Source of the DNA: Minisyncoccota bacterium
GTDB lineage: Bacteria > Patescibacteriota > Minisyncoccia > UBA6257 > GWB1-50-10
Direction: 5' to 3'
Length of the DNA stretch: 64,000 bases
NCBI GenBank assembly: GCA_020059915.1
Contig: JAGVBB010000003.1
Span: 40,920-104,919 of the forward strand
Made by a program: the position numbers and the translations under genes. Below, piece after piece: positions 408 to 45,549 of the stretch. The notes below the pieces were generated by a model. The model made no database searches. It was not told the DNA's origin and saw nothing but the letters and a program-made list of their open reading frames with translations. How positions within the stretch are numbered: the stretch's first letter is position 1; each line of letters starts with the position of its first letter.

Positions 408-1403
408 ATGAAACTGTCCATAGGAATTGTTGGTCTACCCAACGTTGGGAAATCAACTCTGTTTACCATTCTCACAAAACAAAATGTTACTGTTGCAAAT
501 TATCCGTTTGCCACCATTGATCCAAATGTTGGTGTTGTTCCAGTACCAGATGAACGCCTTGAGGTTCTTACCACACTGTCATCTTCAAAAAAGATGATAC
601 CTGCTGTTGTCGAGTTTTATGACATTGCGGGATTGGTGAAGGGTGCATATAAGGGCGAGGGATTGGGAAATCAGTTCTTGGCAAATATACGAGAATGCAA
701 AGCGATTGTACAAGTACTTCGTTGTTTTAAAGACGCAGATATTATTCATGTTGAGGAGACAACAGATCCAGTTCGCGATCTGGATATTATTCTTACCGAA
801 CTTATTTTTAAAGATTTAGACACGGTTACAAAACGGCTTGAAAAATGTGAAAAAGATGTACGAACGGGAGATAAAAAAGCACAACATGATGCAGAAGTTC
901 TTCGTGCAGTGAAAACCGCACTTGAGGGAGGAAATTTATCAAAAGTATTTGCACATGAATCCATCGTAAAGGAATTGTCATTATTAACTGCGAAAGAGCA
1001 GATATTTTTATTAAACGGCGAAGAAGAAGATGTTCCATTGGAATTAAAAGAAAAGATAGCGGAACTTGGCGGACAATATCTAACTATGAATCTTGGACTT
1101 GCGGATGATGTATCACCAATTATCGTTAAAGCATATGAGGCGTTACATTTGATTAGCTTTCTTACTACTGGTGAAGATGAGACGCGTGCTTGGACTATTG
1201 AGCGCGGAGCAAAGGCTCCGGAAGCAGCAGGTGCCATACACACTGATTTTGAACATAAATTCATTCGTGCTGAAGTGGTGAATTATAAGAAGCTTGTTGA
1301 GGCGGGTGGTTGGAATCAGGCAAAACAAAAAGGGTGGCTTCGATTGGAGGGAAAAGAATATGTAGTTGAGGACGGAGATGTGATGGTAATAAGGCATGGG
1401 TAA
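408..1403 (+). CDS. ychF: ribosome-binding ATPase YchF (Obg-family GTPase)
   Basis: N-terminal G1 motif GIVGLPNVGKSTLF, the YchF-type architecture and a C-terminal TGS-like region. A -10-like tactataaat lies upstream. Confidence 0.9.
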   Translation: MKLSIGIVGLPNVGKSTLFTILTKQNVTVANYPFATIDPNVGVVPVPDERLEVLTTLSSSKKMIPAVVEFYDIAGLVKGAYKGEGLGNQFLANIRECKAIVQVLRCFKDADIIHVEETTDPVRDLDIILTELIFKDLDTVTKRLEKCEKDVRTGDKKAQHDAEVLRAVKTALEGGNLSKVFAHESIVKELSLLTAKEQIFLLNGEEEDVPLELKEKIAELGGQYLTMNLGLADDVSPIIVKAYEALHLISFLTTGEDETRAWTIERGAKAPEAAGAIHTDFEHKFIRAEVVNYKKLVEAGGWNQAKQKGWLRLEGKEYVVEDGDVMVIRHG

Positions 1404-4015: not shown

Positions 4016-5062
4016 ATGATTGCATTTGAAGGAATTCGTATACTTATTTTATTTGCACTTTCTTTTGTTGTTGCACTTTTTATTACTCCGTTTGTGCTCA
4101 AACTCCTTATGAAGTTTGGCATAAAGAAGAAAAATATACGCGATGCAACGACTGCTCCCATATTCCATCAGTTTCATAAAAATAAAGGAGAAACACCAAC
4201 TATGGGTGGTGTTATTATTTGGGGCACGGTGGTTGTCCTTGGATTATTGTTTTTTGTTTTAAGTCAGTTATTTGGCGGATTTGCTAACTATTTTAATTTT
4301 GTAAGCAGATCGGAAACATATCTTCCTTTGGGATATTTATTATTTGCTGCGATAGTTGGACTTATTGATGATTTTCTTGGCGTCTTGCGTATTGGTCCTA
4401 AAGGAGGAGGACTTAGTATGCGTCACAAAATTATCATGTATACCATTGTTTCTGCGGTTGGTGCTTGGTGGTTTTATTTCCGTTTGGGATGGAACACACT
4501 CTTTATTCCATTCATTGGAGATATTACTATCGGATGGTGGTACATTCCACTGTTTATGTTTGTCATTATTGCGTCCGCATTTTCTACTAATGAAACTGAT
4601 GGACTTGATGGACTTGCTGGGGGAACTTTATTTTTCATTTTTGGTGCGTTTGCGGTAATTGCATTTACATTAAAACACTTTGATCTTGCTGCAATGAATG
4701 TAGTGATTCTTGGAGCGCTTCTTGCATTTCTTTGGTTCAATATTTATCCCGCGAAATTTTTCATGGGTGATACGGGGTCAATGTCGTTGGGAATTACTGT
4801 GGGTGCTATGGCGATGTTAACCAATACTGTATTTTTTCTTCCTTTCTTTGGCGCAATTCTTGTATTTGAGTCAGTTACGGTGATTATCCAAATGATTAGT
4901 AAAAAGATAAGAAAAAAGAAAATATTTCTTTCTACTCCCATCCACCATCATTTTGAGGCTATCGGATGGCCAGAAACGCAAATTACTATGCGATTTTGGT
5001 TCATCACTGCAGTTACTACAACCATTGGTCTCGCATTATTCTTTATTGCGCGGTTTATATAA
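4016..5062 (+). CDS. mraY: phospho-N-acetylmuramoyl-pentapeptide transferase
   Basis: Polytopic membrane protein with the MraY signature motifs MGDTGS and HHHFE. Confidence 0.9.
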   Translation: MIAFEGIRILILFALSFVVALFITPFVLKLLMKFGIKKKNIRDATTAPIFHQFHKNKGETPTMGGVIIWGTVVVLGLLFFVLSQLFGGFANYFNFVSRSETYLPLGYLLFAAIVGLIDDFLGVLRIGPKGGGLSMRHKIIMYTIVSAVGAWWFYFRLGWNTLFIPFIGDITIGWWYIPLFMFVIIASAFSTNETDGLDGLAGGTLFFIFGAFAVIAFTLKHFDLAAMNVVILGALLAFLWFNIYPAKFFMGDTGSMSLGITVGAMAMLTNTVFFLPFFGAILVFESVTVIIQMISKKIRKKKIFLSTPIHHHFEAIGWPETQITMRFWFITAVTTTIGLALFFIARFI

Positions 5063-6598: not shown

Positions 6599-7722
6599 AG
6601 AAAATAAGAATTCCCAAAAGTGGAAGCCCAGATTTTGTTTTTTTAGGGTTTTTAATTATTCTTGTTATTTTTGGTTTGGTAATGCTCACGAGTGCATCTT
6701 CTGATATTGCCAAATTAGAAAGTGGGGATAGTATGTATTATTTAAAACACCAAATGCTGAATGGACTTTCTATTGGCATGTTTGGTTTCCTTGTTGGATA
6801 CTTTTTGTATTATCGTATTTGGGAAAAAATTTCTATACCACTTTTGGTGGTCGGTATTATTGGTCTTTGTCTTGTTTTTACCCCATTAGTGATGAGTGTT
6901 AAGGGAGGGGATAGATGGGTTGATTTAAAGTTATTTTCTTTCCAACCTGGAGAATTTATGAAACTTGCGTTTCTTGTATACCTTTCTGCTTGGGTGGGGA
7001 AAAACCAGGAACGAGGAAAAAGTTTTTTTGGAGGATTTTTACCGTTTATGGTTCTTGTTGGTGCGGTGATGTTACTTCTTGTTTTCCAACCAGCAACATC
7101 CACAGCAGCATTAATATTTGGTGCATCGATTATTACCTATTTTGTTGCGGGAGCAAAGCCAAGATTTTTTGTTGCTATGGTGTTGATAGGGGCACTTTCT
7201 TTTTCCGCACTAGTATTTTTTGATACAAATGATGCTGGAGAAAATTATCGCCTTAAACGTATCATGACATTTCTCCATCCTGAGGATGACCCATTAAACA
7301 AAGGATATCACATCAACCAGGCTCTCAACGCAATTGGTTCTGGAGAAGTGTTTGGTGTTGGTTTTGGTAAATCGACAACAAAGCTCCATTATCTTCCCGA
7401 GCCGATTGGAGATTCAATTTTTGCTGTTATAGCAGAGGAACTTGGATTTGTCGGTGCAGTTGGATTTCTTCTTTTTTTCCTGGCATTTCTATGGCGAGGG
7501 TTTCGGATTGCTACCCGCGCCCCGGACAATTTTGGAAAACTACTTGTTACAGGCTTTATGAGTGTTTTAGGACTCCAGGCATTTGTGAATATCGGTGCGA
7601 TTTCTGGAGTTATACCACTCACTGGTGTTCCACTTCCATTTGTAAGTTATGGTGGAACCGCTCTCGCAATATTTCTTACTATGTCTGGAATTATCATGAA
7701 TGTTTCAAAATATAGACGATAA
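6595..7722 (+). CDS. ftsW: SEDS-family peptidoglycan polymerase FtsW/RodA
   Basis: Ten-TM profile with the conserved C-terminal motif GVIPLTGVPLPFVSYGGT. Confidence 0.8.
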   Translation: MKKIRIPKSGSPDFVFLGFLIILVIFGLVMLTSASSDIAKLESGDSMYYLKHQMLNGLSIGMFGFLVGYFLYYRIWEKISIPLLVVGIIGLCLVFTPLVMSVKGGDRWVDLKLFSFQPGEFMKLAFLVYLSAWVGKNQERGKSFFGGFLPFMVLVGAVMLLLVFQPATSTAALIFGASIITYFVAGAKPRFFVAMVLIGALSFSALVFFDTNDAGENYRLKRIMTFLHPEDDPLNKGYHINQALNAIGSGEVFGVGFGKSTTKLHYLPEPIGDSIFAVIAEELGFVGAVGFLLFFLAFLWRGFRIATRAPDNFGKLLVTGFMSVLGLQAFVNIGAISGVIPLTGVPLPFVSYGGTALAIFLTMSGIIMNVSKYRR

Positions 7723-7727
7723 ACAAT

Positions 7728-8870
7728 ATGAGAAGAACAAAAAAAATTAGAATTGGTTTTACTGGTGGGGGAACAGGCGGACATATATATCCATTACTTG
7801 CTGTGTGTGATGAGTTTTTAGCAAAACGCGGTGTGTATGATGACACAATTGTTGAAATGCACTATTTTGGAGATCCAGGAATATATCAAAACGAATTTGA
7901 ATTTAGAAATATACACGTGCATCCGATTATCGGAAGTAGATTGCGCAGGTATATGTCTGTTCAAAACATTTTTGATATTCCGAAGTTTTTTCTCAGCATC
8001 TTTCAATCTCTTGTCATTATGCTTTTTACCATGCCAGATGTTTTGTTTTCAAAAGGCGGACCAGGATCTGTTCCTGTTGTGTTATCTGCATGGTGGTACA
8101 GAATCCCCGTAATAATTCATGAATCAGATGCCGTTCCTGGTTTGGGAAACCGTATATCTTCAAAATTTGCAAAACGTATTTGTGTGGCGTTTTCTGAATC
8201 AAAAACATTTTTTCCTGAGTCAAAAGTTTCTCTTACGGGAAATCCTATTCGAAAAGAACTTCTTGGAAATCGTATGTCAAAAGAAGGAGCAAAAAATTTT
8301 TGGCGCATGAATGAAAAACTTCCATTGGTACTTGTGCTTGGTGGTTCACAGGGATCCCAGCGAATAAATTCACTGATTATTGAAAATCTCGCAGAATTAC
8401 TCGGAGATATACAGATATTGCACCAGGTTGGTAAACATAACTATCAGGACATAGAAATGTCTATGAAGGAAATTATGGCGCCAGTCCCTCGAGAATTTCG
8501 TGATAGATATCGCGCAGTTGGTTTTATGGATGTTGAGGAAATGAAACATGCCTTTTCATCCGCAAATGTTGTTGTTTCGCGTGCTGGTTCTGGGGCAATA
8601 TTTGAAATTGCATCGTTTAATGTGCCAGCGGTGCTCATACCACTCAAAGAGTCAGCGGGAGACCATCAGCGAGTGAATGCCTATGCATATTCAAAGATTA
8701 GTCGTGCACAAGTTCTTGAGGAGGAAAACATGACTGTACATGAATTACAATCAAGAATTCATAGAGAACTTCAGAATGGACAACCAACGGAATCATCTCC
8801 AAACCAATTTTTTATACAAAATTCATCGCAATTGATTGTTCAGGAAATTAATCGTTATATAGCAAATTAA
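7728..8870 (+). CDS. murG: UDP-GlcNAc--lipid I N-acetylglucosaminyltransferase
   Basis: N-terminal IGFTGGGTGGHIYPLLAV glycine-rich loop. GT28 architecture. Confidence 0.85.
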   Translation: MRRTKKIRIGFTGGGTGGHIYPLLAVCDEFLAKRGVYDDTIVEMHYFGDPGIYQNEFEFRNIHVHPIIGSRLRRYMSVQNIFDIPKFFLSIFQSLVIMLFTMPDVLFSKGGPGSVPVVLSAWWYRIPVIIHESDAVPGLGNRISSKFAKRICVAFSESKTFFPESKVSLTGNPIRKELLGNRMSKEGAKNFWRMNEKLPLVLVLGGSQGSQRINSLIIENLAELLGDIQILHQVGKHNYQDIEMSMKEIMAPVPREFRDRYRAVGFMDVEEMKHAFSSANVVVSRAGSGAIFEIASFNVPAVLIPLKESAGDHQRVNAYAYSKISRAQVLEEENMTVHELQSRIHRELQNGQPTESSPNQFFIQNSSQLIVQEINRYIAN

Positions 8871-26164: not shown

Positions 26165-26689
26165 TTATTTTTTCAAAAACAATAACTGTTTAGTTCCGAG
26201 TACCATCATTGGTGGTATCACATAAAGCAATGCAAGAAATCCACCACCGATTACAAGGCCAAATCCAAGTCCTACAAATGATCCAACCATGAGCAGATAT
26301 AATATCTCATGCTGATTCAACATTGATTGAAAACCGATATATGTGATCCATGCGCCGAAAGTAAAAATCAGCCCACATACCACATACACATAGATTGCGG
26401 TTGGTATGAATGTATACAGTATTATATTTACAATAAATGCTATGACCAAGACCGCACCGAGAATGATTTGACCAAATGTATCTTCCTCTTCTCCCTTGCT
26501 TCTTGATTCATCGTGTTCTTGTTCTCCAATATATCCGAATGTATAACCGCCAAAAGCAAGGAATAACACATCAAGAATTCTTGGGTATACAATTTCATAA
26601 CCGAATAATACGATCGGATCAATACGGAATAGTGAATATATAAATCCGAAAAATCCGAATGTAAAAAAGTACCTAGTTGGTGTATTCAT
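26165..26689 (-). CDS. hypothetical membrane protein
   Basis: 174 aa with 5-6 TM segments. No recognised motif. Confidence 0.4.
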   Translation of the reverse strand: MNTPTRYFFTFGFFGFIYSLFRIDPIVLFGYEIVYPRILDVLFLAFGGYTFGYIGEQEHDESRSKGEEEDTFGQIILGAVLVIAFIVNIILYTFIPTAIYVYVVCGLIFTFGAWITYIGFQSMLNQHEILYLLMVGSFVGLGFGLVIGGGFLALLYVIPPMMVLGTKQLLFLKK

Positions 26690-26745
26690 AACACCTCCTT
26701 TTATTGTTAATGTTGAGGAGATTATACAACGTATGCCTTATTCCG

Positions 26746-32359: not shown

Positions 32360-32388
32360 AAAACCCCCACAGTGTGGGGGTTATTTTT
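32360..32388 (-). terminator. intrinsic terminator downstream of lexA
   Basis: aaacccccacagtgtgggggtt hairpin with a T-run on the minus strand. Confidence 0.5.
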
Positions 32389-33043
32389 ATAGTTTTGGTT
32401 TTTTGATAACCTGCACTACTTTTCCGTTAATCATATAATTGTCATTTTCGTGAATATAGATTGGTGGAAAATCCTGGCTTGAATCAGAGATAAGAATGAT
32501 CTGTTTGTTTTCCTCATCTTTGTGGAATCTTTTTATGTTTGCCATTCCATCAATAATTGAGAGGATAATATCGCCATTTTTTGGGTTCCTATCGGTGGTA
32601 TCTACAATGACATAGTCGCCATCTTCAATTTTCTTTTTATCAATGGTCGCACGGTTCATACTTGGACCCTTTACACGAATTGCAAACAACACATGTGATG
32701 CGGGACGAGGTTTTACGAGTGATTCAGAAATGCGAAGAAAGCCTTCAATATTTTCTTCTGCAATTGCTGTTGCGGGACCAGCACTTGCATATCCAAGAAT
32801 AGGGATCATGAGCAATCCGCCTTTTTGTTTTTTTGTTGGAGCATCCCATGTGTCTCGCGTGTTTTTAATAACACCATGCGCTTTATCGATATGGAGCAAT
32901 CCGCGTTTTTCCAATTGACCCATATGATGCTTTACCTTTTGTGGAGATGTTTCACCAATGAATGCGCCAATCTCACGCAATGAGAACATTGCAAGATTTT
33001 TTATTTTTGCGAGCTCCAATAATTTTTCTTGGATGGTGTGCAT
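32387..33043 (-). CDS. lexA: LexA-family repressor (S24 peptidase)
   Basis: N-terminal wHTH (LREIGAFIGETSPQKVKHHMGQLEKRGLL). C-terminal S24 domain with Ser-Lys dyad context (VKGPSMN ... K). Start reassigned to MHTIQ at 33043. Confidence 0.75.
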   Translation of the reverse strand: MHTIQEKLLELAKIKNLAMFSLREIGAFIGETSPQKVKHHMGQLEKRGLLHIDKAHGVIKNTRDTWDAPTKKQKGGLLMIPILGYASAGPATAIAEENIEGFLRISESLVKPRPASHVLFAIRVKGPSMNRATIDKKKIEDGDYVIVDTTDRNPKNGDIILSIIDGMANIKRFHKDEENKQIILISDSSQDFPPIYIHENDNYMINGKVVQVIKKPKL

Positions 33044-33056
33044 ATGTTTATATACA

Positions 33057-33071
33057 TAGTATATCATACTC
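33057..33071. promoter_or_regulatory. palindromic candidate operator at the lexA start
   Basis: ATATAC-TAT-GTATAT perfect 6-3-6 palindrome between the putative -10 and the ATG of lexA. Confidence 0.3.
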
Positions 33072-33211
33072 GCATAATACTTGACACTGTGGACAACTAA
33101 AACACAAGAAAACAAAAGACAGAATTAGTCAAAATGGGTTTAAAATTGACTACTCCCCCATTTAATGGTATTATCAATACATAATTCTTTAATAAAAAGT
33201 AGGAGGATATT

Positions 33212-33796
33212 ATGTCTGAAAACAAGGTGATCGCAATCAGCCAGTTTGCTCTTAGCCAATGGGGATGTCCGCATTGTGGATATCGCTCTGGATATATGCC
33301 AATACAGGTTGGTGGATCGGCAATGTGGATTTGTGGTGAGTGCCAGAAAAGATGTGCAGTTCTTGCAGATGGTATAACGAGATCAAAGATTGCAGTTGGT
33401 GCTCCCGCATACTATCCAGAATTACAGCCACACCCTTTAGAAGGAACTCCAAAACATGGAAGACCTGATAAAAAACCGGTTGGTGGTGGAGAATATTTTC
33501 GTTCTCGTGGTATTGGATTGGACGAAACGCCTGGATGCTTTGTTTGTGGTGGAAGTACAAAATTACATAGCAACATTGCTGCGTTTGTACAATGTAAAGA
33601 AGCTGGCGAACGAATCGTTAAAATGTTCGAAACAGGTGCGCGATTAGATTACCGGGAACATGAGCCAGACCGCATTCAGGTAAAAATAGGTGCTTGTGAT
33701 AAGCACTTTAGGAATCTTGAAATGCTCCATAATAAAACCTCAGAAACTGGTACTATTGTTGCAGAAATGATTTTCCGTTCAAAAACAGAAGTTTAA
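33212..33796 (+). CDS. hypothetical Cys-rich zinc-ribbon protein (divergent from lexA)
   Basis: CPHCG...CGEC and CFVCG...C...CDKH clusters. TTGACT-N17-TATTAT promoter at 33150-33180. No recognised family. Confidence 0.45.
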   Translation: MSENKVIAISQFALSQWGCPHCGYRSGYMPIQVGGSAMWICGECQKRCAVLADGITRSKIAVGAPAYYPELQPHPLEGTPKHGRPDKKPVGGGEYFRSRGIGLDETPGCFVCGGSTKLHSNIAAFVQCKEAGERIVKMFETGARLDYREHEPDRIQVKIGACDKHFRNLEMLHNKTSETGTIVAEMIFRSKTEV

Positions 33797-33826
33797 AAAA
33801 CTCCCCCGCTTTTGCGGGGGTTTTGT
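33795..33826 (+). terminator. bidirectional intrinsic terminator
   Basis: aaaactcccccgc-tttt-gcgggggttttgtt between convergent genes. Confidence 0.55.
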
Positions 33827-34176
33827 TAATCATATAAAGATCCATCAAGGAGTCCGAGTAGTTCTGCAAGAATTGCATATGCTTCTTTTTTGGTAAGCTT
33901 CATTTTTTCTTGGAGTTCCATCAGTACGAAACTATATATAGATTCGTAATATTGTGCCTGAAGAAGTTTTAAATTAGGACTGCTTATTAATTCTTCAATA
34001 GATATGCCATTTTGTTTTGCAATTAAGATATTGATGCTGGTCTCTTCGTTTGGTAATTTTTCTTCAAGTTTTGCTTTGATTTCTTCCCCAACTTTATTGA
34101 ATTCCTCGTCAGACATTCTTTGTTCAATACCATATAGTGCCAAAACCAGTTCCATTTTGTCATATGGAATATTCAT
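33826..34176 (-). CDS. hypothetical acidic protein
   Basis: Start reassigned to the ATG at 34176, preceded by an AGGAGGA SD. Helical, Glu-rich, no recognised motif. Confidence 0.4.
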   Translation of the reverse strand: MNIPYDKMELVLALYGIEQRMSDEEFNKVGEEIKAKLEEKLPNEETSINILIAKQNGISIEELISSPNLKLLQAQYYESIYSFVLMELQEKMKLTKKEAYAILAELLGLLDGSLYD

Positions 34177-34258
34177 ATTTTCCTCCTCTGCATAGTTATT
34201 AATGAATAATAAAAAAATACCGCTTTGTGTTGTTTTTGTCAAAGTTTATTTCACACAT

Positions 34259-34310: not shown

Positions 34311-34398
34311 TCAATTTTTAGGGGTAAGTGGATTCTTTTATCTGAGAGTGTGTATTCATTTTTAGGGGTAAGTGGATTCTTCCGTCTGAGGGTGATGT
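34311..34398. repeat. 2 x 44-bp tandem direct repeat
   Basis: tttttaggggtaagtggattctt... repeated twice, with divergence in the 3' third. Confidence 0.6.
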
Positions 34399-34811
34399 TA
34401 CCAATTTAATACAGTTACAGTAATTTGGAGGATGGTGGCAAAGTAGACCCAGAGAAGATATGGAATATTTATGAATACCACCCAGCGGGCTTTTGGCCAG
34501 ATGACCTTCATCGCCCAGATGAGTGTCCCCAGCACCAACAGAATATCAAGTGTTGCAAGTATGTTACTTTGCAATCCAAATTGGATGGGGGTGAACAATA
34601 CGTTGAACAAGGCATTCAAAAAAAATGGCAGAAAGACGCTCGTTTTATATTCCTTCTTCATATATTTCACGAGTACATACCCAAATGAAACAATGATCAA
34701 CACATACAACACCGTCCACACGGGACCAAATATCCATGATGGTGGCGCCCATGCCGGTTTTAACAATTCGCTATAATATGCGTAGTTTTCCATTACCTTC
34801 ATTATAATCAA
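34398..34811 (-). CDS. tspO: TspO/MBR-family tryptophan-rich membrane protein
   Basis: LKPAWAPPSWIFGPVWTVLYVLI matches the TspO signature. Four to five TM helices. Confidence 0.65.
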   Translation of the reverse strand: MIIMKVMENYAYYSELLKPAWAPPSWIFGPVWTVLYVLIIVSFGYVLVKYMKKEYKTSVFLPFFLNALFNVLFTPIQFGLQSNILATLDILLVLGTLIWAMKVIWPKARWVVFINIPYLLWVYFATILQITVTVLNW

Positions 34812-34892
34812 TTTTTATATTGACAATCTTTGACAAATCCCCGATTTATTGGTATTTTATTTACAACGTTAACAAATTATATTGGAGGAACA

Positions 34893-35402
34893 ATGGTTAA
34901 GGGCAAGAGGTTTTTTCGGCTTTCCATTGCTATTCAGGAACTATTTTTGTTGATTTCAGAGATGAATCATCTGAAGCAATCAAAGCAAACAGGCATCTTT
35001 GTATCCGTCTTCAACAAGGAAACAGGAGATGCTCTGATGGAGCAAACATTTGGATTACTCCATCTTGATCAGGAAGAATCATATAGAGTTTTTTGTCAGC
35101 AACGGGCATTTTGGCTTTTTAGCCATCCCGATGCAATTTGTTCTATTGAAAATGGCGAGGACGCATTTACTGGCGCTGTTTCAGGAAGAAAACATGTTGT
35201 TGCGGTTTCAGGACTTGATCCACATGACAATTCGGCAGTCGCCATTCTCATTTTGAGCCAGCTTGAAGATACACAAGAAGATCGCGATAAACGCGATGCA
35301 TATGTACGGATGTCAGAATGTTGGGATGATTTGTATATCATTCTTGATTTTCTTGCATGCGTACACAAGATGGATCTATTTGATCGGTTCAATGCAGTGT
35401 AA
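34893..35402 (+). CDS. hypothetical protein, paralog family member A
   Basis: Start at the ATG after GGAGG. Conserved core HPDAICSIENGEDAFTGAVSGRKHVVAVSGLDPHDNSAVAILIL is shared with 35441-35890 and 44472-45017. Confidence 0.5.
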   Translation: MVKGKRFFRLSIAIQELFLLISEMNHLKQSKQTGIFVSVFNKETGDALMEQTFGLLHLDQEESYRVFCQQRAFWLFSHPDAICSIENGEDAFTGAVSGRKHVVAVSGLDPHDNSAVAILILSQLEDTQEDRDKRDAYVRMSECWDDLYIILDFLACVHKMDLFDRFNAV

Positions 35403-35440
35403 TTCAATTTCATTCACACATACATATAGTAGGAGGATTC

Positions 35441-35890
35441 ATGAATGTAGAAGATGCAACCAAAACTGTTGAAGCATTTATTGCTCTCATTTCCAAAACA
35501 CTCAAACCATTTCCAACACAACGACGTTTTGTGCAGGTATACGACAAAGAAGAACAAAGAGTTGTTATCAGTATGGTCTTGGGAAGTGGAAATAAAAAGA
35601 ATGGACTTGATACAAAACAAAGAATGCTTGCATGGCTTTTGGAACACCCGGATGCTGTTGCTTCGGCAGAAAGTTGCGGAGACGCCCCCGATGGCGGAAT
35701 TTCAGGACGAAGATATATTGTTTTGGTTTCTGGTGGGTTCCCGATTGATAATTCGGCGCTTGCGATTTTATTATTCGCACAGATTGAACACGAGCCGGTG
35801 GATACCATCAATCGAGAAACCTATATTGAAAAAGCTGGATGTAAGGAAGAACTTAATTCATTGCTCAATTTTCTCGAAATTACGATATAA
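35441..35890 (+). CDS. hypothetical protein, paralog family member B
   Basis: AGGAGG SD. Core HPDAVASAESCGDAPDGGISGRRYIVLVSGGFPIDNSALAILLFAQIEHEP. The terminator accgcgcatgatgcgcggttttttt at 35897-35921 follows. Confidence 0.5.
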   Translation: MNVEDATKTVEAFIALISKTLKPFPTQRRFVQVYDKEEQRVVISMVLGSGNKKNGLDTKQRMLAWLLEHPDAVASAESCGDAPDGGISGRRYIVLVSGGFPIDNSALAILLFAQIEHEPVDTINRETYIEKAGCKEELNSLLNFLEITI

Positions 35891-35926
35891 CTATATACCG
35901 CGCATGATGCGCGGTTTTTTTATATA

Positions 35927-37525: not shown

Positions 37526-37596
37526 TGCGGGATCGTCTAATGGTAGGACAGCGGACTCTGAATCCGTCAATCTTGGTTCGAATCCAGGTCCCGCAG
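37526..37596 (+). tRNA. tRNA-Gln (anticodon CTG)
   Basis: Acceptor tgcggga/tcccgca, anticodon loop ctCTGaa, T-arm cttggttcgaatccagg and discriminator G. No encoded CCA. Confidence 0.8.
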
Positions 37597-37603
37597 CACA
37601 TGA

Positions 37604-37640
37604 AAATCTGGAACACATTTGTTGTGCTCCAGATTTTTAT
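37604..37640 (+). terminator. intrinsic terminator after tRNA-Gln
   Basis: aaaatctggaacac-atttgtt-gtgctccagattttt. Confidence 0.5.
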
Positions 37641-37830
37641 TTGTAGGACACCGGATTCGAACCGCGGGCCGCAGGCTTCGAAGAGAAGCCGAAGGTCTCG
37701 AACTCAGCAGAGTGAGAGGCGAATCCAGGTCCCGCAGCCAATTTTTAAGCGTAAAAATTGCGTCGAAACGAGCACGCTTTCGACGTTGAATCATATTATT
37801 TGCACCGTAAGGTGCAAATATAACAGGAGT
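37641..37830. repeat. tRNA-Gln-derived partial copies and hairpin cluster
   Basis: 19-nt direct copy of the tRNA-Gln 3' end (cgaatccaggtcccgcagc at 37711-37729). Inverted T-arm-like ccggattcgaacc at 37651-37663. Hairpins ggcttcgaagagaagcc, cgtcgaaa...tttcgacg and atttgcacc-gtaa-ggtgcaaat. Confidence 0.45.
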
Positions 37831-37993
37831 ATAAATCACGCAGAAATTAGCACAATTTCTGCGACATTTGTTTAGTATATATTTTTTCCGGATTGTTGAA
37901 TGGCGAATCCAGGTTCAAAAATGCACGCGAATGCGTGCATTTTTTGGTGTTGATAGAATTGTATATTTGTTGGATAATTTATTCAATAAGTAT

Positions 37994-38521
37994 ATGGATT
38001 ATATAGATTTATTAGATAATACTTTTTTTGGAACCCTTTTTGCTGGAAGTCTCATTGCAATTTTGGGATATATCTTTTATAAAAAACAAAAAATATTGGA
38101 TATTTTCTATAGAAAAGAGGAAGAAAAACAAAAAAAGTGTGATATTCTTCTAAAACATTTAAGAATTTCTGTGGATGACTGTAGGGCTCAAGTGGACGTC
38201 CGTAATGGAAAAAATTCTATTGCAAAAAATATATATGATTTTATAGAATCTACGTATTCAAATTTTATTTCTAGATCAAACTCAATTAGATTTCGAAATT
38301 ATGTAGACAAGATTAATGATTCATTTGATGAATTAAAACTTTTTTTAATTCCTGAAGATAAGTACAAAACAGAAAGAAATGAACTTCAAAATTTAATACC
38401 CTCAATCACCTTTTATTTGGCAGGAGTTGATATTTTAGAGGAAAAAAATGTAGTTGAACTTGAAAAAAAATTACAAGAAGCAGAGAATATTTTAAAAAAA
38501 ATTGGAAAAGTAAAAGACTAA
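37994..38521 (+). CDS. hypothetical membrane-anchored coiled-coil protein (island gene 1)
   Basis: Start reassigned to MDYIDLL. One N-terminal TM, then a Lys/Glu-rich helical region. Very AT-rich coding sequence. Confidence 0.4.
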   Translation: MDYIDLLDNTFFGTLFAGSLIAILGYIFYKKQKILDIFYRKEEEKQKKCDILLKHLRISVDDCRAQVDVRNGKNSIAKNIYDFIESTYSNFISRSNSIRFRNYVDKINDSFDELKLFLIPEDKYKTERNELQNLIPSITFYLAGVDILEEKNVVELEKKLQEAENILKKIGKVKD

Positions 38522-38529
38522 TTAGAATC

Positions 38530-39456
38530 ATGGACGAAAAATTAAAATTATTTGTAATGGGGCATGGGAATGCTTTTCATTCGAGGGTTATTTCTAAACT
38601 TCGAACTTTGGGTTGGAGTGTTATGGTAAGTCCATTTTATCGAGATAATGCCACTGGTAAGGCGAGAGAGGCTGATATTATTGCGGAAAAAGAAGTAAAA
38701 TTTGGCATGGATGGAAATTCGAATGCTAGCAATGGTTTCTTTTTAATACGATTAGTTATTGAGTGTAAATATGTTAAGGACCCTATTATTTTTTGGTTTG
38801 ACAAAAAAGATGCCACAGCTACTGAAGAGAGAATTATAAAAGATATTAGTATTTTTCAAAATTCAAAAAAAAATACCTCGATAAAAAAGCACCATTGGTA
38901 TGAGTCAGAAGAAGCCGCAAAATTATTTGCCACTTTCAACCAAAACAAAGAAGAACGACAATTTGAAAATGAAATTATTTTTTCTTCCGTTGATAAAGTC
39001 CTCAATTGTTTGATAAACTATAGATCAAAGCCCTCAATAATCACCTCTCCAATTTCTCCAGACCATTGTTTTTATAAAAAATTAAATCCGATTATTATTA
39101 CGTATCCCATTATTATTTTGGACAGTTTTTCTAAACTATATAGAACAGAAATATCATCACAAACAGATCAAATTACAAATTTAAATGGGGCTGTAAATTT
39201 TGATATAGAAGTTAATTATGAATATGAACAAGGTATTTTTGGCGGCGAACATCCAAAAGTTAGTCATCACCCCTATTTGTCTATTAGAGTAAAAATGCCA
39301 GGAGAAACCGAGCCTGAAGAGCCTAAAACATGGAGTGAATATAAAAATATGAATTTTGAATATTTCTTACTTGACGTCACTTGTATTGAGAAATTAGATG
39401 ACTATTTAGAAAAATTAAAAAATAAGGATTTAAGAGCAGCGCTTAATTTTGTCTAA
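38530..39456 (+). CDS. Mrr-cat (restriction endonuclease type IV-like) domain protein with unknown C-terminal domain (island gene 2)
   Basis: N-terminal 90 aa FHSRVISKLRTLGWSVMVSPFYRDNATGKAREADIIAEKEV...FFLIRLVIECKYV fit the Mrr_cat pattern (D...DIIAEK...ECK is a PD-(D/E)xK core). The C-terminal 190 aa or so are not recognised. Confidence 0.55.
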   Translation: MDEKLKLFVMGHGNAFHSRVISKLRTLGWSVMVSPFYRDNATGKAREADIIAEKEVKFGMDGNSNASNGFFLIRLVIECKYVKDPIIFWFDKKDATATEERIIKDISIFQNSKKNTSIKKHHWYESEEAAKLFATFNQNKEERQFENEIIFSSVDKVLNCLINYRSKPSIITSPISPDHCFYKKLNPIIITYPIIILDSFSKLYRTEISSQTDQITNLNGAVNFDIEVNYEYEQGIFGGEHPKVSHHPYLSIRVKMPGETEPEEPKTWSEYKNMNFEYFLLDVTCIEKLDDYLEKLKNKDLRAALNFV

Positions 39457-39462
39457 TTAATT

Positions 39463-39933
39463 ATGAATGAATTATCTTATAAAGCAGTAGATTTTATAAA
39501 AGAAATTCGAAGTAAAATCCAGTTTCTTGTTACTGTACAAATCTTCTTTTCGGGGGTTATGTATGCTTTTTATGACGCCATTGGTAGTGAGGTGATAAAA
39601 GATGGTACAAATACTCTTTTTTGGGGTATTGGTGTAGCGTTTTGTTTAATAAACTATTTAATGATTGGAATTCTTGAGGAGTCAAAAGAAAGAATGTTTC
39701 GTTGGATAAATATTAGTATCTCAATAAACATTGCATGCTTTATATTACCTTTTGTTATTTTAGCGCTGGTAGTGAGAAATCCTCTTCCCAGTTTTTATAA
39801 CTGGCCGTTTATTATTTCTTTTGGAGGAGCAATTTGGATGCCGATAGTTACATTTTCAACCATTATTGGTGCCTCATATTGGAATATTTTTTTATGGATC
39901 AACAAGTTACTCAAAAATATAACTAAAAAATAA
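39463..39933 (+). CDS. hypothetical 4-TM membrane protein (island gene 3)
   Basis: 156 aa with four predicted TM helices, 6 nt downstream of the nuclease gene. Confidence 0.45.
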   Translation: MNELSYKAVDFIKEIRSKIQFLVTVQIFFSGVMYAFYDAIGSEVIKDGTNTLFWGIGVAFCLINYLMIGILEESKERMFRWINISISINIACFILPFVILALVVRNPLPSFYNWPFIISFGGAIWMPIVTFSTIIGASYWNIFLWINKLLKNITKK

Positions 39934-39941
39934 ATCCAATC

Positions 39942-40298
39942 ATGCTCCACCAAATGCATTTACATCCAAATCCCTTCAGAAAGATAAAAGAGGGATCACA
40001 ACAGATTGAAACACGAATATATGACGAAAAACGTCGTCAGTTTAAAATTGGTGACAGTATTGAATTTATTTCTCGAGAAAATCCCGAAGATAAATTTTTA
40101 GTAGAAATAACAGATCTTATTATCAAACCAACTTTTTCTGAGCTTTTTGATACCTTTCCGTCCGAACTATTTGGGGGAAAAGACAAAGAGGATTTAATGG
40201 GAATCTATAAATATTATTCACCCCAAGAAGAAAAAGACTTTGGTGTGGTGGGTATAAAGGTGCGATTGATTGACTCTCTGGAGCAGAGTAAAAAGTGA
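39942..40298 (+). CDS. ASCH (PUA-like) domain protein
   Basis: MHLHPNPFRKIKEGSQQIETRIYDEKRRQFKIGDSIEF matches the ASCH domain N-terminal beta-barrel pattern (GxKxxExR ... GD). Confidence 0.6.
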   Translation: MLHQMHLHPNPFRKIKEGSQQIETRIYDEKRRQFKIGDSIEFISRENPEDKFLVEITDLIIKPTFSELFDTFPSELFGGKDKEDLMGIYKYYSPQEEKDFGVVGIKVRLIDSLEQSKK

Positions 40299-44471: not shown

Positions 44472-45017
44472 ATGGGAACGAATTTGCCGTTACAGGAGAA
44501 AATTGAGGAGATGCGAACCTATGCGGAGTTGGTGCTCCAGATACCGCAGATTAAAAATAAAAAAACAACCGGAGTATATGTGCGTGTCTATAATCGGGAA
44601 ACAACAAATCTGGTTATTGGTGAAACGTTTGGGACATTCGCACATGGATACCTGAAAGAATCAAATTCATCACACCAAAAAGCACGCTGGTTATATCTCC
44701 ATCCGCATGCAATTTCGACGACAGAGAGTAATGGCGAGGTTGATGCTGGTGGCATTAAGGGCAAGAACCACATTATTGGTGTTTCTGGATTTGATGTTTT
44801 TAATTATAATTCCGCACTCGCGATACTATTACTTGCCTGTTTTGAACATGAACCGAGTAATGGTTCTTGGCATGTGATGCAGGAATATGCAAAGCGAGCA
44901 CAATGTGAAACAGAACTTAATTGGCTTCTTGAACACATGCAAGCACTCCCCATTCCATCACGATTTGCGACCGTTGTTACTAAATTTTTTTCCTGGTTAC
45001 ATAAAGAAAAGAAGTAA
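44472..45017 (+). CDS. hypothetical protein, paralog family member C
   Basis: AGGAGG SD. Core HPHAISTTESNGEVDAGGIKGKNHIIGVSGFDVFNYNSALAILLLACFEHEP. The terminator atcccgcc-caagag-gcgggattttt at 45022-45050 follows. Confidence 0.5.
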   Translation: MGTNLPLQEKIEEMRTYAELVLQIPQIKNKKTTGVYVRVYNRETTNLVIGETFGTFAHGYLKESNSSHQKARWLYLHPHAISTTESNGEVDAGGIKGKNHIIGVSGFDVFNYNSALAILLLACFEHEPSNGSWHVMQEYAKRAQCETELNWLLEHMQALPIPSRFATVVTKFFSWLHKEKK

Positions 45018-45102
45018 CACATATCCCGCCCAAGAGGCGGGATTTTTATATATTGTGCCAATTATTTATTTGTTGGATAATTTTGTTATATTGTATATCA
45101 AA

Positions 45103-45549
45103 ATGAAATTCACGCTTGAACGGTTTATTGAGGCAAACAATAATGGAACTTTGAAAGAACTTACCATTGAATATTTATTAACCGAAGGAAAGAATAAACA
45201 TCTCGCGGATCATTTATCTAACAACAAAATAATTTGGGTTGATCTTATTGAATACCCACTTAGACAATTAAGAAGAGAAATGGGATATGAGGGCGAGGGA
45301 CTTGTGTTTAGTGAGAACAAAGAACAATGGGATCAACGGGTTGGACTCTTAAAAAATGACATACAACAGGGATATACTCCTCCCCCGCTTATTGCTACCG
45401 ACTTTTGGGATGATGTACATCTTGCTGATGGTTCACACAGACATGAGGCGTTTGTGCAACTTAATTGGAGTAAATATTGGACTATATTCTTCATAAAAAA
45501 TGAGGCCAATAAAAAGATAATTTTGGATATGAATTTGTTAGGGAATTAA
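45103..45549 (+). CDS. ParB/sulfiredoxin-like nuclease-domain protein
   Basis: PPPLIATDFWDDVHLADGSHRHEAF resembles the ParB N-terminal domain motif (DGhHR..A). Start reassigned to MKFTLERF at 45103. Confidence 0.5.
   Translation: MKFTLERFIEANNNGTLKELTIEYLLTEGKNKHLADHLSNNKIIWVDLIEYPLRQLRREMGYEGEGLVFSENKEQWDQRVGLLKNDIQQGYTPPPLIATDFWDDVHLADGSHRHEAFVQLNWSKYWTIFFIKNEANKKIILDMNLLGN

Follow-up and report, generated by a model that had tools for sequence, protein, structure and literature searches.

Three small genes of no named family, here called A, B and C, were analyzed in a stretch of 64,000 nucleotides from a Minisyncoccota bacterium (contig JAGVBB010000003.1, positions 40,920 to 104,919 of the forward strand), which is referred to as the window; positions are counted from its first letter and are collected in Table 1. 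The best explanation that we can offer for them, at slightly less than even confidence, is that their products form a diverged hetero-oligomeric binder or sensor of a small ligand, probably of tetrapyrroles, which has the DUF336 fold and is coupled to TspO. The evidence comes from the predicted structure of B, from a pocket signature in a wider protein family to which the three belong, and from a constant gene arrangement in which two different paralogs face a divergent TspO gene.

That A, B and C are true paralogs, with C as the third copy proposed in the initial annotation, is clear from pairwise BLASTP. A and B share 37% identity (E 9e-25), A and C 29% (E 3e-24) and B and C 39% (E 4e-23), and the scores of 77-80 bits compare with a maximum of 21.6-24.3 bits for shuffled sequences (200 shuffles per partner). 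The three proteins can be aligned over almost their full length; identity to A is 27-34%, and 30 columns are invariant. The alignment contains the motifs WLxxHPxA, SxE, GG/GA-I/V-S/K-G, VSG, NSA(L/V)AIL and C-x2-(E/D)-L. The core motifs described in the initial annotation are therefore found in the alignment, except that A deviates at EHEP (EDTQ) and at ELN (DDLY). A fourth copy was not detected in the window by tblastn. All three proteins are cytoplasmic and 150-180 amino acids (aa) long. The mechanical open reading frame (ORF) of A opens at TTG 34830, and the ATG start used here agrees with the 169-aa ortholog P0005 and with the NCBI record RJQ28061.1. B is a 100% match to 'hypothetical protein C4565_04200 [Candidatus Parcubacteria bacterium]', and A (RJQ28061.1) and C (RJQ29027.1) are likewise 'hypothetical' at NCBI, as are all database copies of the family. 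The locus tags of A and B are C4565_04205 and C4565_04200, but C carries C4565_02760 despite the distance of only 9 kb; the deposited record of this metagenome-assembled genome (MAG) may be split or ordered differently from this contig.

As stated in the initial annotation, no named family can be assigned by sequence. Pfam gave zero families for A, B and C at E <= 1, and scans against NCBIfam, PADLOC and PHROGs gave no match; hits to YukD (E 0.02), peptide arginase (E 0.13) and one PHROG (E 0.19) were dismissed as noise. Searches of PDB sequences with profiles of 3, 20 and 50 sequences returned chance matches only (E > 0.4), and a metagenome scan with A returned nothing. An exhaustive HMMER search with a 5-sequence profile against 1.84 billion cluster representatives yielded a close and very rare subfamily of 8 strong clusters (E <= 1e-30), including the ortholog of A and C itself, whose sources, where named, are all Parcubacteria/Paceibacterota. 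The proteins P0006, P0007 and P0008 (315-328 aa) carry two domain copies per chain, both matching at E 3e-18 to 1e-34. The tandem-repeat proteins P0012 and P0015, which match only profile positions 93-139 and do so 6-10 times, were set aside as repeat-inflated false positives. The weaker matches P0013, P0014 and P0016-18, from E 9e-7 (P0013) to 9e-4, gave entry to a wider family, which after two iterated profile searches comprised about 100 unnamed clusters of 150-190 aa from Patescibacteria, Uhrbacteria, Terracidiphilus and unassigned metagenome bins. The close and the wide subfamily align with each other in hhalign at 98.1% (E 7e-14) even when bridging sequences are excluded. Among the approximately 120 relatives, no precomputed Pfam assignment was found except PF05157 on the longer fusion P0050 (280 aa).

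The wider family (P0013-P0121) has the consensus GGYFCL...QEKAxRL..HP.H.SSWESRD...WGGAIR...ILSFSGLPE.gDEA. Its members have the same length as A, B and C and the same predicted fold, as they dominated the alignment used for the model. They differ at about 16 polar or aromatic positions, which are nearly invariant among them and mostly lost in A, B and C, in lacking the C-x2-E-L cysteine motif, and in being encoded by single-copy, stand-alone genes of diverse phyla without a TspO neighbour. The A/B/C subfamily is thus, by its sequence, a degenerate or re-specialised offshoot of the wider family.

The structure of B was predicted with AlphaFold2. With an alignment of 115 sequences (A5) the model reached a predicted local distance difference test score (pLDDT) of 83.9 and a predicted template modelling score (pTM) of 0.82; a model made with 5 sequences (pLDDT 58) was too poor and was discarded. 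The predicted topology is helix, beta-hairpin, helix, short helix, beta-hairpin and helix, followed by two extra C-terminal helices. The structural matches were Ybr137w (4clc, score 9.9), HbpS (3fpv, 9.5), the C-terminal domain of PduO with haem (5cx7, 9.1), OrfY/DUF336 (2a2l, 9.0), EfgA (6bws, 8.7), a putative extracellular haem-binding protein (4nkp, 8.3) and NahX (9jth, 8.1). Roadblock/LC7-MglB, longin, GAF and the IclR ligand domain were considered as candidates for the best structural match, and none of them proved to be it. On the strength of the model, A, B and C very probably have the profilin-like fold of the GlcG/HbpS/PduO-C/EfgA proteins (DUF336) and belong to their superfamily, and common descent with DUF336 is a reasonable but unproven assumption. 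The initial annotation had held that placement in a well-characterised housekeeping family would count against an unrecognised family; no such placement was obtained, as DUF336 is itself poorly understood and the link is by fold only.

A, B and C fall into the size class of DUF336 proteins, which is 135-180 aa. They differ from them in the two added C-terminal helices with an invariant cysteine, in showing no sequence similarity that could be detected to PF03928 or to a solved member, and in their position beside TspO and not in glycolate, propanediol or aromatic-degradation operons or with the SenS/SenR system. DUF336 proteins form oligomers from beta-sheet-extended dimers, namely a tetramer in EfgA, octamers in HbpS, OrfY and PduOC and a decamer in Ybr137w (PMC4923194, PMC8153426). 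HbpS and PduOC bind haem and cobalamin (PMC4923194, PMC8153426), in PduOC with the haem at the dimer interface (PMC4923194), and EfgA is a cytoplasmic formaldehyde sensor with a K/S/D pocket (PMC8153426).

This pocket may have a counterpart in the wider family. Over 106 wide-family sequences (residues in B numbering), K62 is present in 106, S97 in 104 and D104 in 104, and the last two are set in an S-x6-D spacing. This S-x6-D spacing is also that of the EfgA pocket K57/S114/D121 (...KKAKTA...GVSG-x6-D; numbering from the alignment and PMC8153426). A global hhalign alignment, which is of low confidence, places QEKAxRL opposite DUF336 (S/Q)xKAxTA and WGGAIR...ILSFSG-x6-D opposite GG(V/I)P...IGA(I/V)GVSG-x6-D. 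Further near-invariant positions of the wide family are GGY in strand 1, E-K and R in helix 2, H-x2-S-W-E-S-R-D, W-G-G-A-x-R, S-F-S-G, P-E and D-E. In the subfamily of A, B and C only S75, E77, S78, G85, S97 and G98 of these residues are kept, together with an asparagine at position 104. The pocket serine is thereby retained and the pocket aspartate is replaced by asparagine; at the position of the pocket lysine, A and B carry R or M and C carries K. Residues invariant within the subfamily itself are W65, P70, A72, G85, G89, V96, G98 and C134, and nearly invariant ones are H69, S75, E77, S97, N104 and E116; C134 lies in the extra C-terminal helices.

The second line of evidence is the gene neighbourhood. 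Upstream of A, in divergent orientation, lies a gene of the TspO/MBR family. Its likely start is ATG 34793, which gives 131 aa as in the orthologs, and the protein is 72-82% identical to TspO of four related loci (L010, L012, L013 and L014). In 5/5 loci, the window included, two different paralogs, in tandem or fused, face the divergent TspO gene across 72-100 bp, and TspO is the sole gene constantly paired with the family in the recovered loci. On a further fragment (L011), the last part of an A ortholog precedes a B ortholog. The initial annotation had suggested checking whether homologs in related genomes are multi-copy; in the recovered loci of the close subfamily they occur as tandem or fused pairs, with TspO as the neighbour. 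A cytochrome b5-like (Cyt-b5) gene lies beyond TspO in 4/5 loci, namely L010 (HPGG motif), L012 (Pfam E 1e-20), L013 and L014; Cyt-b5 and DUF2214 homologs were searched for in the window and none was found. The far flank varies more: B is followed in the window by the gene of a 154-aa membrane protein and then a Na/Ca exchanger, and the other loci have a Na/Ca exchanger (L014), a cation efflux gene (L013), a PDEase-like gene (L010) or a response regulator (L012).

With 131-148 aa, the TspO homologs of this lineage are short, and of the 145 positions of the Pfam model only 20/22-143 are matched. From this partial coverage, the first of the five canonical transmembrane (TM) helices seems to be missing.

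In a bootstrapped neighbour-joining tree, A, P0005, P0009 and gene 2 of L010 join the C-terminal fusion domains (88%), and the B-type sequences are placed in a clade of their own (100%). A grouping of C with the N-terminal fusion domains was not accepted, as its bootstrap value is only 32%. These N-terminal domains have lost the HP..S.E loop in two of three cases and the SG serine in two of three, which is the pattern expected of a pseudo-subunit. The orthologs are under purifying selection: the ratio of nonsynonymous to synonymous substitution rates (dN/dS) is 0.17 for B against its 73%-identical ortholog on L011 and 0.11 for the C-terminal 85 codons of A against the same fragment, and rapid diversifying evolution was rejected for the orthologs on these values. 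The A-type domains are 34-57% identical to each other, compared with 69-82% for TspO and 87% for LexA, which corresponds to a rate of evolution about three times that of the neighbouring genes.

Since the paralogs occur in tandem or fused and DUF336 proteins assemble through dimers, the working unit would be a hetero-oligomer built on a pseudo-symmetric heterodimer. The presence of either two different paralogs or a two-domain fusion at the TspO loci implies hetero- rather than homo-oligomers. With three independent two-domain fusions, and with tandem pairs in the window, L010 and L011, we consider an obligate heteromer to be somewhat more probable than not. One partner would be the conserved A-type subunit and the other a more variable one, which may be of the B-type, the P0011-type, a fusion N-domain or possibly C. 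The complex would bind or sense a small ligand, most likely a tetrapyrrole (haem or porphyrin), which might be exchanged with TspO or reported on its behalf. TspO would be expressed from a divergent promoter region shared with A-B, in an organism from which haem synthesis is expected to be absent.

A tetrapyrrole is the most economical choice of ligand because TspO binds tetrapyrroles, HbpS and PduOC bind haem or cobalamin, and a Cyt-b5 gene is usually nearby. Bacteria of the candidate phyla radiation (CPR) are thought unable to make tetrapyrroles, so that any haem used would have to be acquired. TspO is described as binding and degrading porphyrins (PMC10077581, PMC10598825, PMC13185565), and one of these papers describes its physiological role as still unclear (PMC10077581). 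The terms DUF336, haem-binding, operon and cytochrome b5 do not occur in a review of TSPO binding partners from 2021 (PMC8243069), and no published precedent for a pairing of the family with TspO was found in the texts searched. The tetrapyrrole/TspO step is the weakest of the proposal, and a function linked to tetrapyrroles and TspO is doubtful. In its most specific form, the heteromeric DUF336-fold complex would be a dedicated soluble partner of a TspO that apparently lacks the first TM helix, receiving, delivering or sensing tetrapyrroles at the membrane of haem-auxotrophic Parcubacteria; this is rather unlikely as it stands. If true, a bacterial TspO would for the first time have a genetically anchored partner, the complex would count as a new module for haem handling in CPR bacteria, and the divergently transcribed soluble neighbour would provide a concrete and testable hypothesis for a TspO partner. 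About 120 'hypothetical' clusters would gain a fold and a testable K...S-x6-D pocket. The series from tandem to fused genes would show how a homo-oligomeric fold was turned into an obligate hetero-oligomer with one subunit conserved and one degenerating. New here are a family that is invisible to current profile libraries, its obligate encoding as two paralogs or as a fusion, the added C-terminal helices and their invariant cysteine, and the constant pairing with TspO.

Several results weigh against the proposal. For the fold, PF03928 ('Haem_degrading') gave no match at E <= 10 to 20 members, five of the wide family among them, and profile searches of PDB sequences returned no DUF336 entry at E <= 10. 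The family alignment A5 was compared by hhalign with a DUF336 profile (A6) made of E. coli GlcG, 4nkp, 2a2l, 6bws and 3fpv, the solved relatives being taken from a phmmer alignment; the probability was 5% (P 0.008) and not significant, although A6 with its five sequences is shallow and the test therefore weak. A comparison with E. coli GlcG alone was not significant either. Because homology is not demonstrable in sequence, the DUF336 link rests on the predicted structure and on the low-confidence register of the motifs. For the ligand, A, B and C have replaced GGY, E-K, R65, H72, W76, R79, W83, R88, E101 and D104 (by N), so that ligand binding may be altered or lost in them, and inspection of the alignments revealed no conserved counterpart of His18 in helix 1, the haem ligand of PduOC. 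For the partner, the five loci with TspO all belong to a single lineage, in which TspO is 69-82% identical, and their left flank, with LexA, a membrane protein, Cyt-b5, the hypothetical gene and TspO, is largely syntenic; the adjacency to TspO could thus be inherited gene order. C is not beside TspO, and wide-family members were found in eight other contexts without a TspO neighbour. If the TspO link is inherited gene order, what is left is a new divergent family of the DUF336 superfamily, which is of value for annotation and unsurprising.

In a first alternative, the three proteins would act like EfgA, as a cytoplasmic sensor of a small reactive metabolite or of stress (an aldehyde, or redox state via the invariant cysteine) that acts on, for example, translation and has no mechanistic tie to TspO, the adjacency being inherited. 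The K/S/D signature of EfgA is invariant in the wide family, the close subfamily has an invariant Cys134 and a nearly invariant His69 of its own, and the genes of the wide family stand mostly alone among housekeeping genes; these points, and the origin of all TspO-linked loci in one lineage, fit such a sensor. The genes of P0073 and P0061 are inserted co-directionally between secY and adk, where a ribosomal-protein (spc) operon ends (L004 5001-5489, L005 5001-5489 and L015 4001-4492), a placement that recalls the arrest of translation by EfgA. The adjacency to TspO, however, holds in 5/5 loci despite the divergence of the A-type domains and a mostly different opposite flank; the pocket lysine has become R or M in A and B and the pocket aspartate N in all three; and no genes of formaldehyde or aldehyde metabolism were seen nearby. 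We regard this sensor as unlikely.

Alternatively, the pocket may have been lost altogether, leaving a ligand-free adaptor or scaffold like Ybr137w, a hetero-oligomeric platform for protein-protein contacts, for example in membrane-protein handling. Ybr137w (UPF0303, from yeast), the first of the structural matches, reportedly binds Sgt2/Get4 of the GET pathway, and nothing in the present data points to such partners; it is a eukaryotic homo-decamer, and the identity is 11-15%. The subfamily of the window has lost most of the polar residues that are invariant in the wide family, the degenerate N-terminal fusion domains look like pseudo-subunits, and the A-type has an aromatic/amphipathic tail by which it could attach to a membrane or a partner. 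Against this, the subfamily has a distinct set of invariant residues, which looks like a retained site and not like mere scaffolding, and a pure adaptor is accordingly judged quite improbable beside a ligand-binding heteromer.

The suggestion of the initial annotation that paralog expansion points to variable effectors, immunity proteins or antitoxin-like factors found no support and is highly improbable: the proteins are small, lineage-restricted, multi-copy, unannotated and fast-evolving, and a possible ParB-like ORF follows C, but PADLOC and PHROGs gave zero matches and BFVD no viral structural match at E <= 0.001, A and B are mutually homologous, with such paralogs also fused in one polypeptide in other loci, and are not a toxin with an unrelated antidote, the synteny with TspO is stable in five genomes without mobile or defence context, the low dN/dS and a predicted fold of ligand-binding and sensor proteins speak for another role, and no secretion signal, toxin domain or mobile-element gene was found beside the A-B locus. 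The ORF downstream of C (45103-45549, +) encodes 148 aa with a DGSHRHE motif. The ParB-like neighbour mentioned in the initial annotation has a counterpart here in a PHROG match to 'ParB-like partition protein' (E 0.0099) and none in Pfam, so that it is at best very divergent.

The expression signals support the organization of A and B as one operon. The -35 and -10 boxes of its promoter are kept in the spacers between TspO and the paralogs in all five loci (window, L010, L012, L013 and L014). The initial annotation had assigned a perfect AGGAGG Shine-Dalgarno sequence and a terminator to each gene, and both hold for B and C only. A is preceded by tGGAGGa, and a scan found no terminator behind it; the 38-nt spacer between A and B folds at -3.2 kcal/mol (z +1.5), which is weaker than its shuffles. 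A and B are therefore transcribed as one operon and C as a monocistronic unit of its own. No inverted repeat that could serve as a shared operator in the spacer between TspO and A is conserved across the loci. In L012 alone, a perfect 13-nt palindrome (ATCTATCGAAGTC g GACTTCGATAGAT) is located at 1368-1394, just upstream of the -35 box.

The leader box of A recurs at the same position upstream of C and upstream of a gene on the minus strand (26165-26689); L010, L012, L013 and L014 carry it too. The layout is -35, 17 nt, -10, 5-8 nt, AAC(A/G)TTAACAA, 5-12 nt, GGAGG and ATG. Apart from the sites in Table 1, the box lies at 26704-26713 (-) in the window, at about 7383-7392 in L010 and at about 1438-1447 in L012. 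The genes with this leader in the window, namely the A-B operon, C and the gene of a 174-aa membrane protein at 26165-26689, are non-homologous apart from the paralogs. The 10-mer ACRTTAAYAA occurs 5 times in the window compared with 1.5 expected, a count reached in 2 of 100 shuffles, and 3 of the 5 copies occupy the promoter position of the leader. The box could be the shared operator of a small regulon or an initiator or leader element of the lineage.

Table 1. Positions of the paralogs, their expression signals and neighbours in the window, and layout of the TspO-linked loci.
Feature	Position	Strand	Description
Paralog A	34893..35402	+	169 aa from ATG; C-terminal aromatic/amphipathic tail DLFDRFNAV; 'A-type' subunit
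Paralog B	35441..35890	+	149 aa; 'B-type' subunit; co-transcribed with A
Paralog C	44472..45017	+	181 aa; stand-alone copy, about 9 kb from B
TspO/MBR gene	34398..34811	-	Pfam PF03073, E 7e-28, model positions 22-143 of 145; divergent from A
Conserved hypothetical gene	33826..34242	-	Downstream of TspO; 43% identity to L010 6146-6481, same position; no Pfam match
Sigma-70-like promoter, A-B operon	34830..34858	+	TTGACA, 17 nt, TG-n-TATTTT; 10/12 consensus positions, extended -10 TG
Leader box of A, ACGTTAACAA	34866..34875	+	Between -10 hexamer and Shine-Dalgarno sequence
Leader box, ACATTAACAA	44444..44453	+	Upstream of C
Intrinsic terminator, A-B operon	35897..35915	+	8-bp stem, 6 GC pairs, T7 run; -14.7 kcal/mol, z -3.2
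Intrinsic terminator of C	45023..45043	+	-15 kcal/mol, z -3.7
Locus, window			TspO 34398-34811 (-), promoter, A, B
Locus L010, Paceibacterota MAG JBAZZD010000002.1			TspO 6912-7307 (-), 100 bp, 7408-7899 (P0011-type), 8001-8516 (A-type)
Locus L012, JGI Ga0172375			TspO 946-1362 (-), 100 bp, fused P0008
Locus L013, contig carrying P0124 (NCBI: Parcubacteria LiPW_41)			TspO 4482-4928 (-), 72 bp, fused P0006-like
Locus L014, ENA ERZ15184977			TspO 4507-4905 (-), 95 bp, fused P0007

Two further observations concern the surroundings of the paralogs. Between LexA (32387-33115) and the conserved hypothetical gene, the window encodes at 33212-33796 (+) a 194-aa Cys-rich protein with several CxxC pairs and no Pfam match. 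In L010, L012 and L013 this stretch is occupied by a Cyt-b5-like gene and by the gene of a DUF2214-like membrane protein, and in L014 the Cyt-b5 gene lies farther from TspO; the Cys-rich gene may be a lineage-specific replacement. Between B and C, directly after tRNA-Gln (37526-37597), the GC content of the block 37526-40000 drops to 29% compared with about 38% elsewhere. Its ORFs (37868-38521, 38530-39456 and 39463-39933) have no significant Pfam match, and the block may be a small integrated island.

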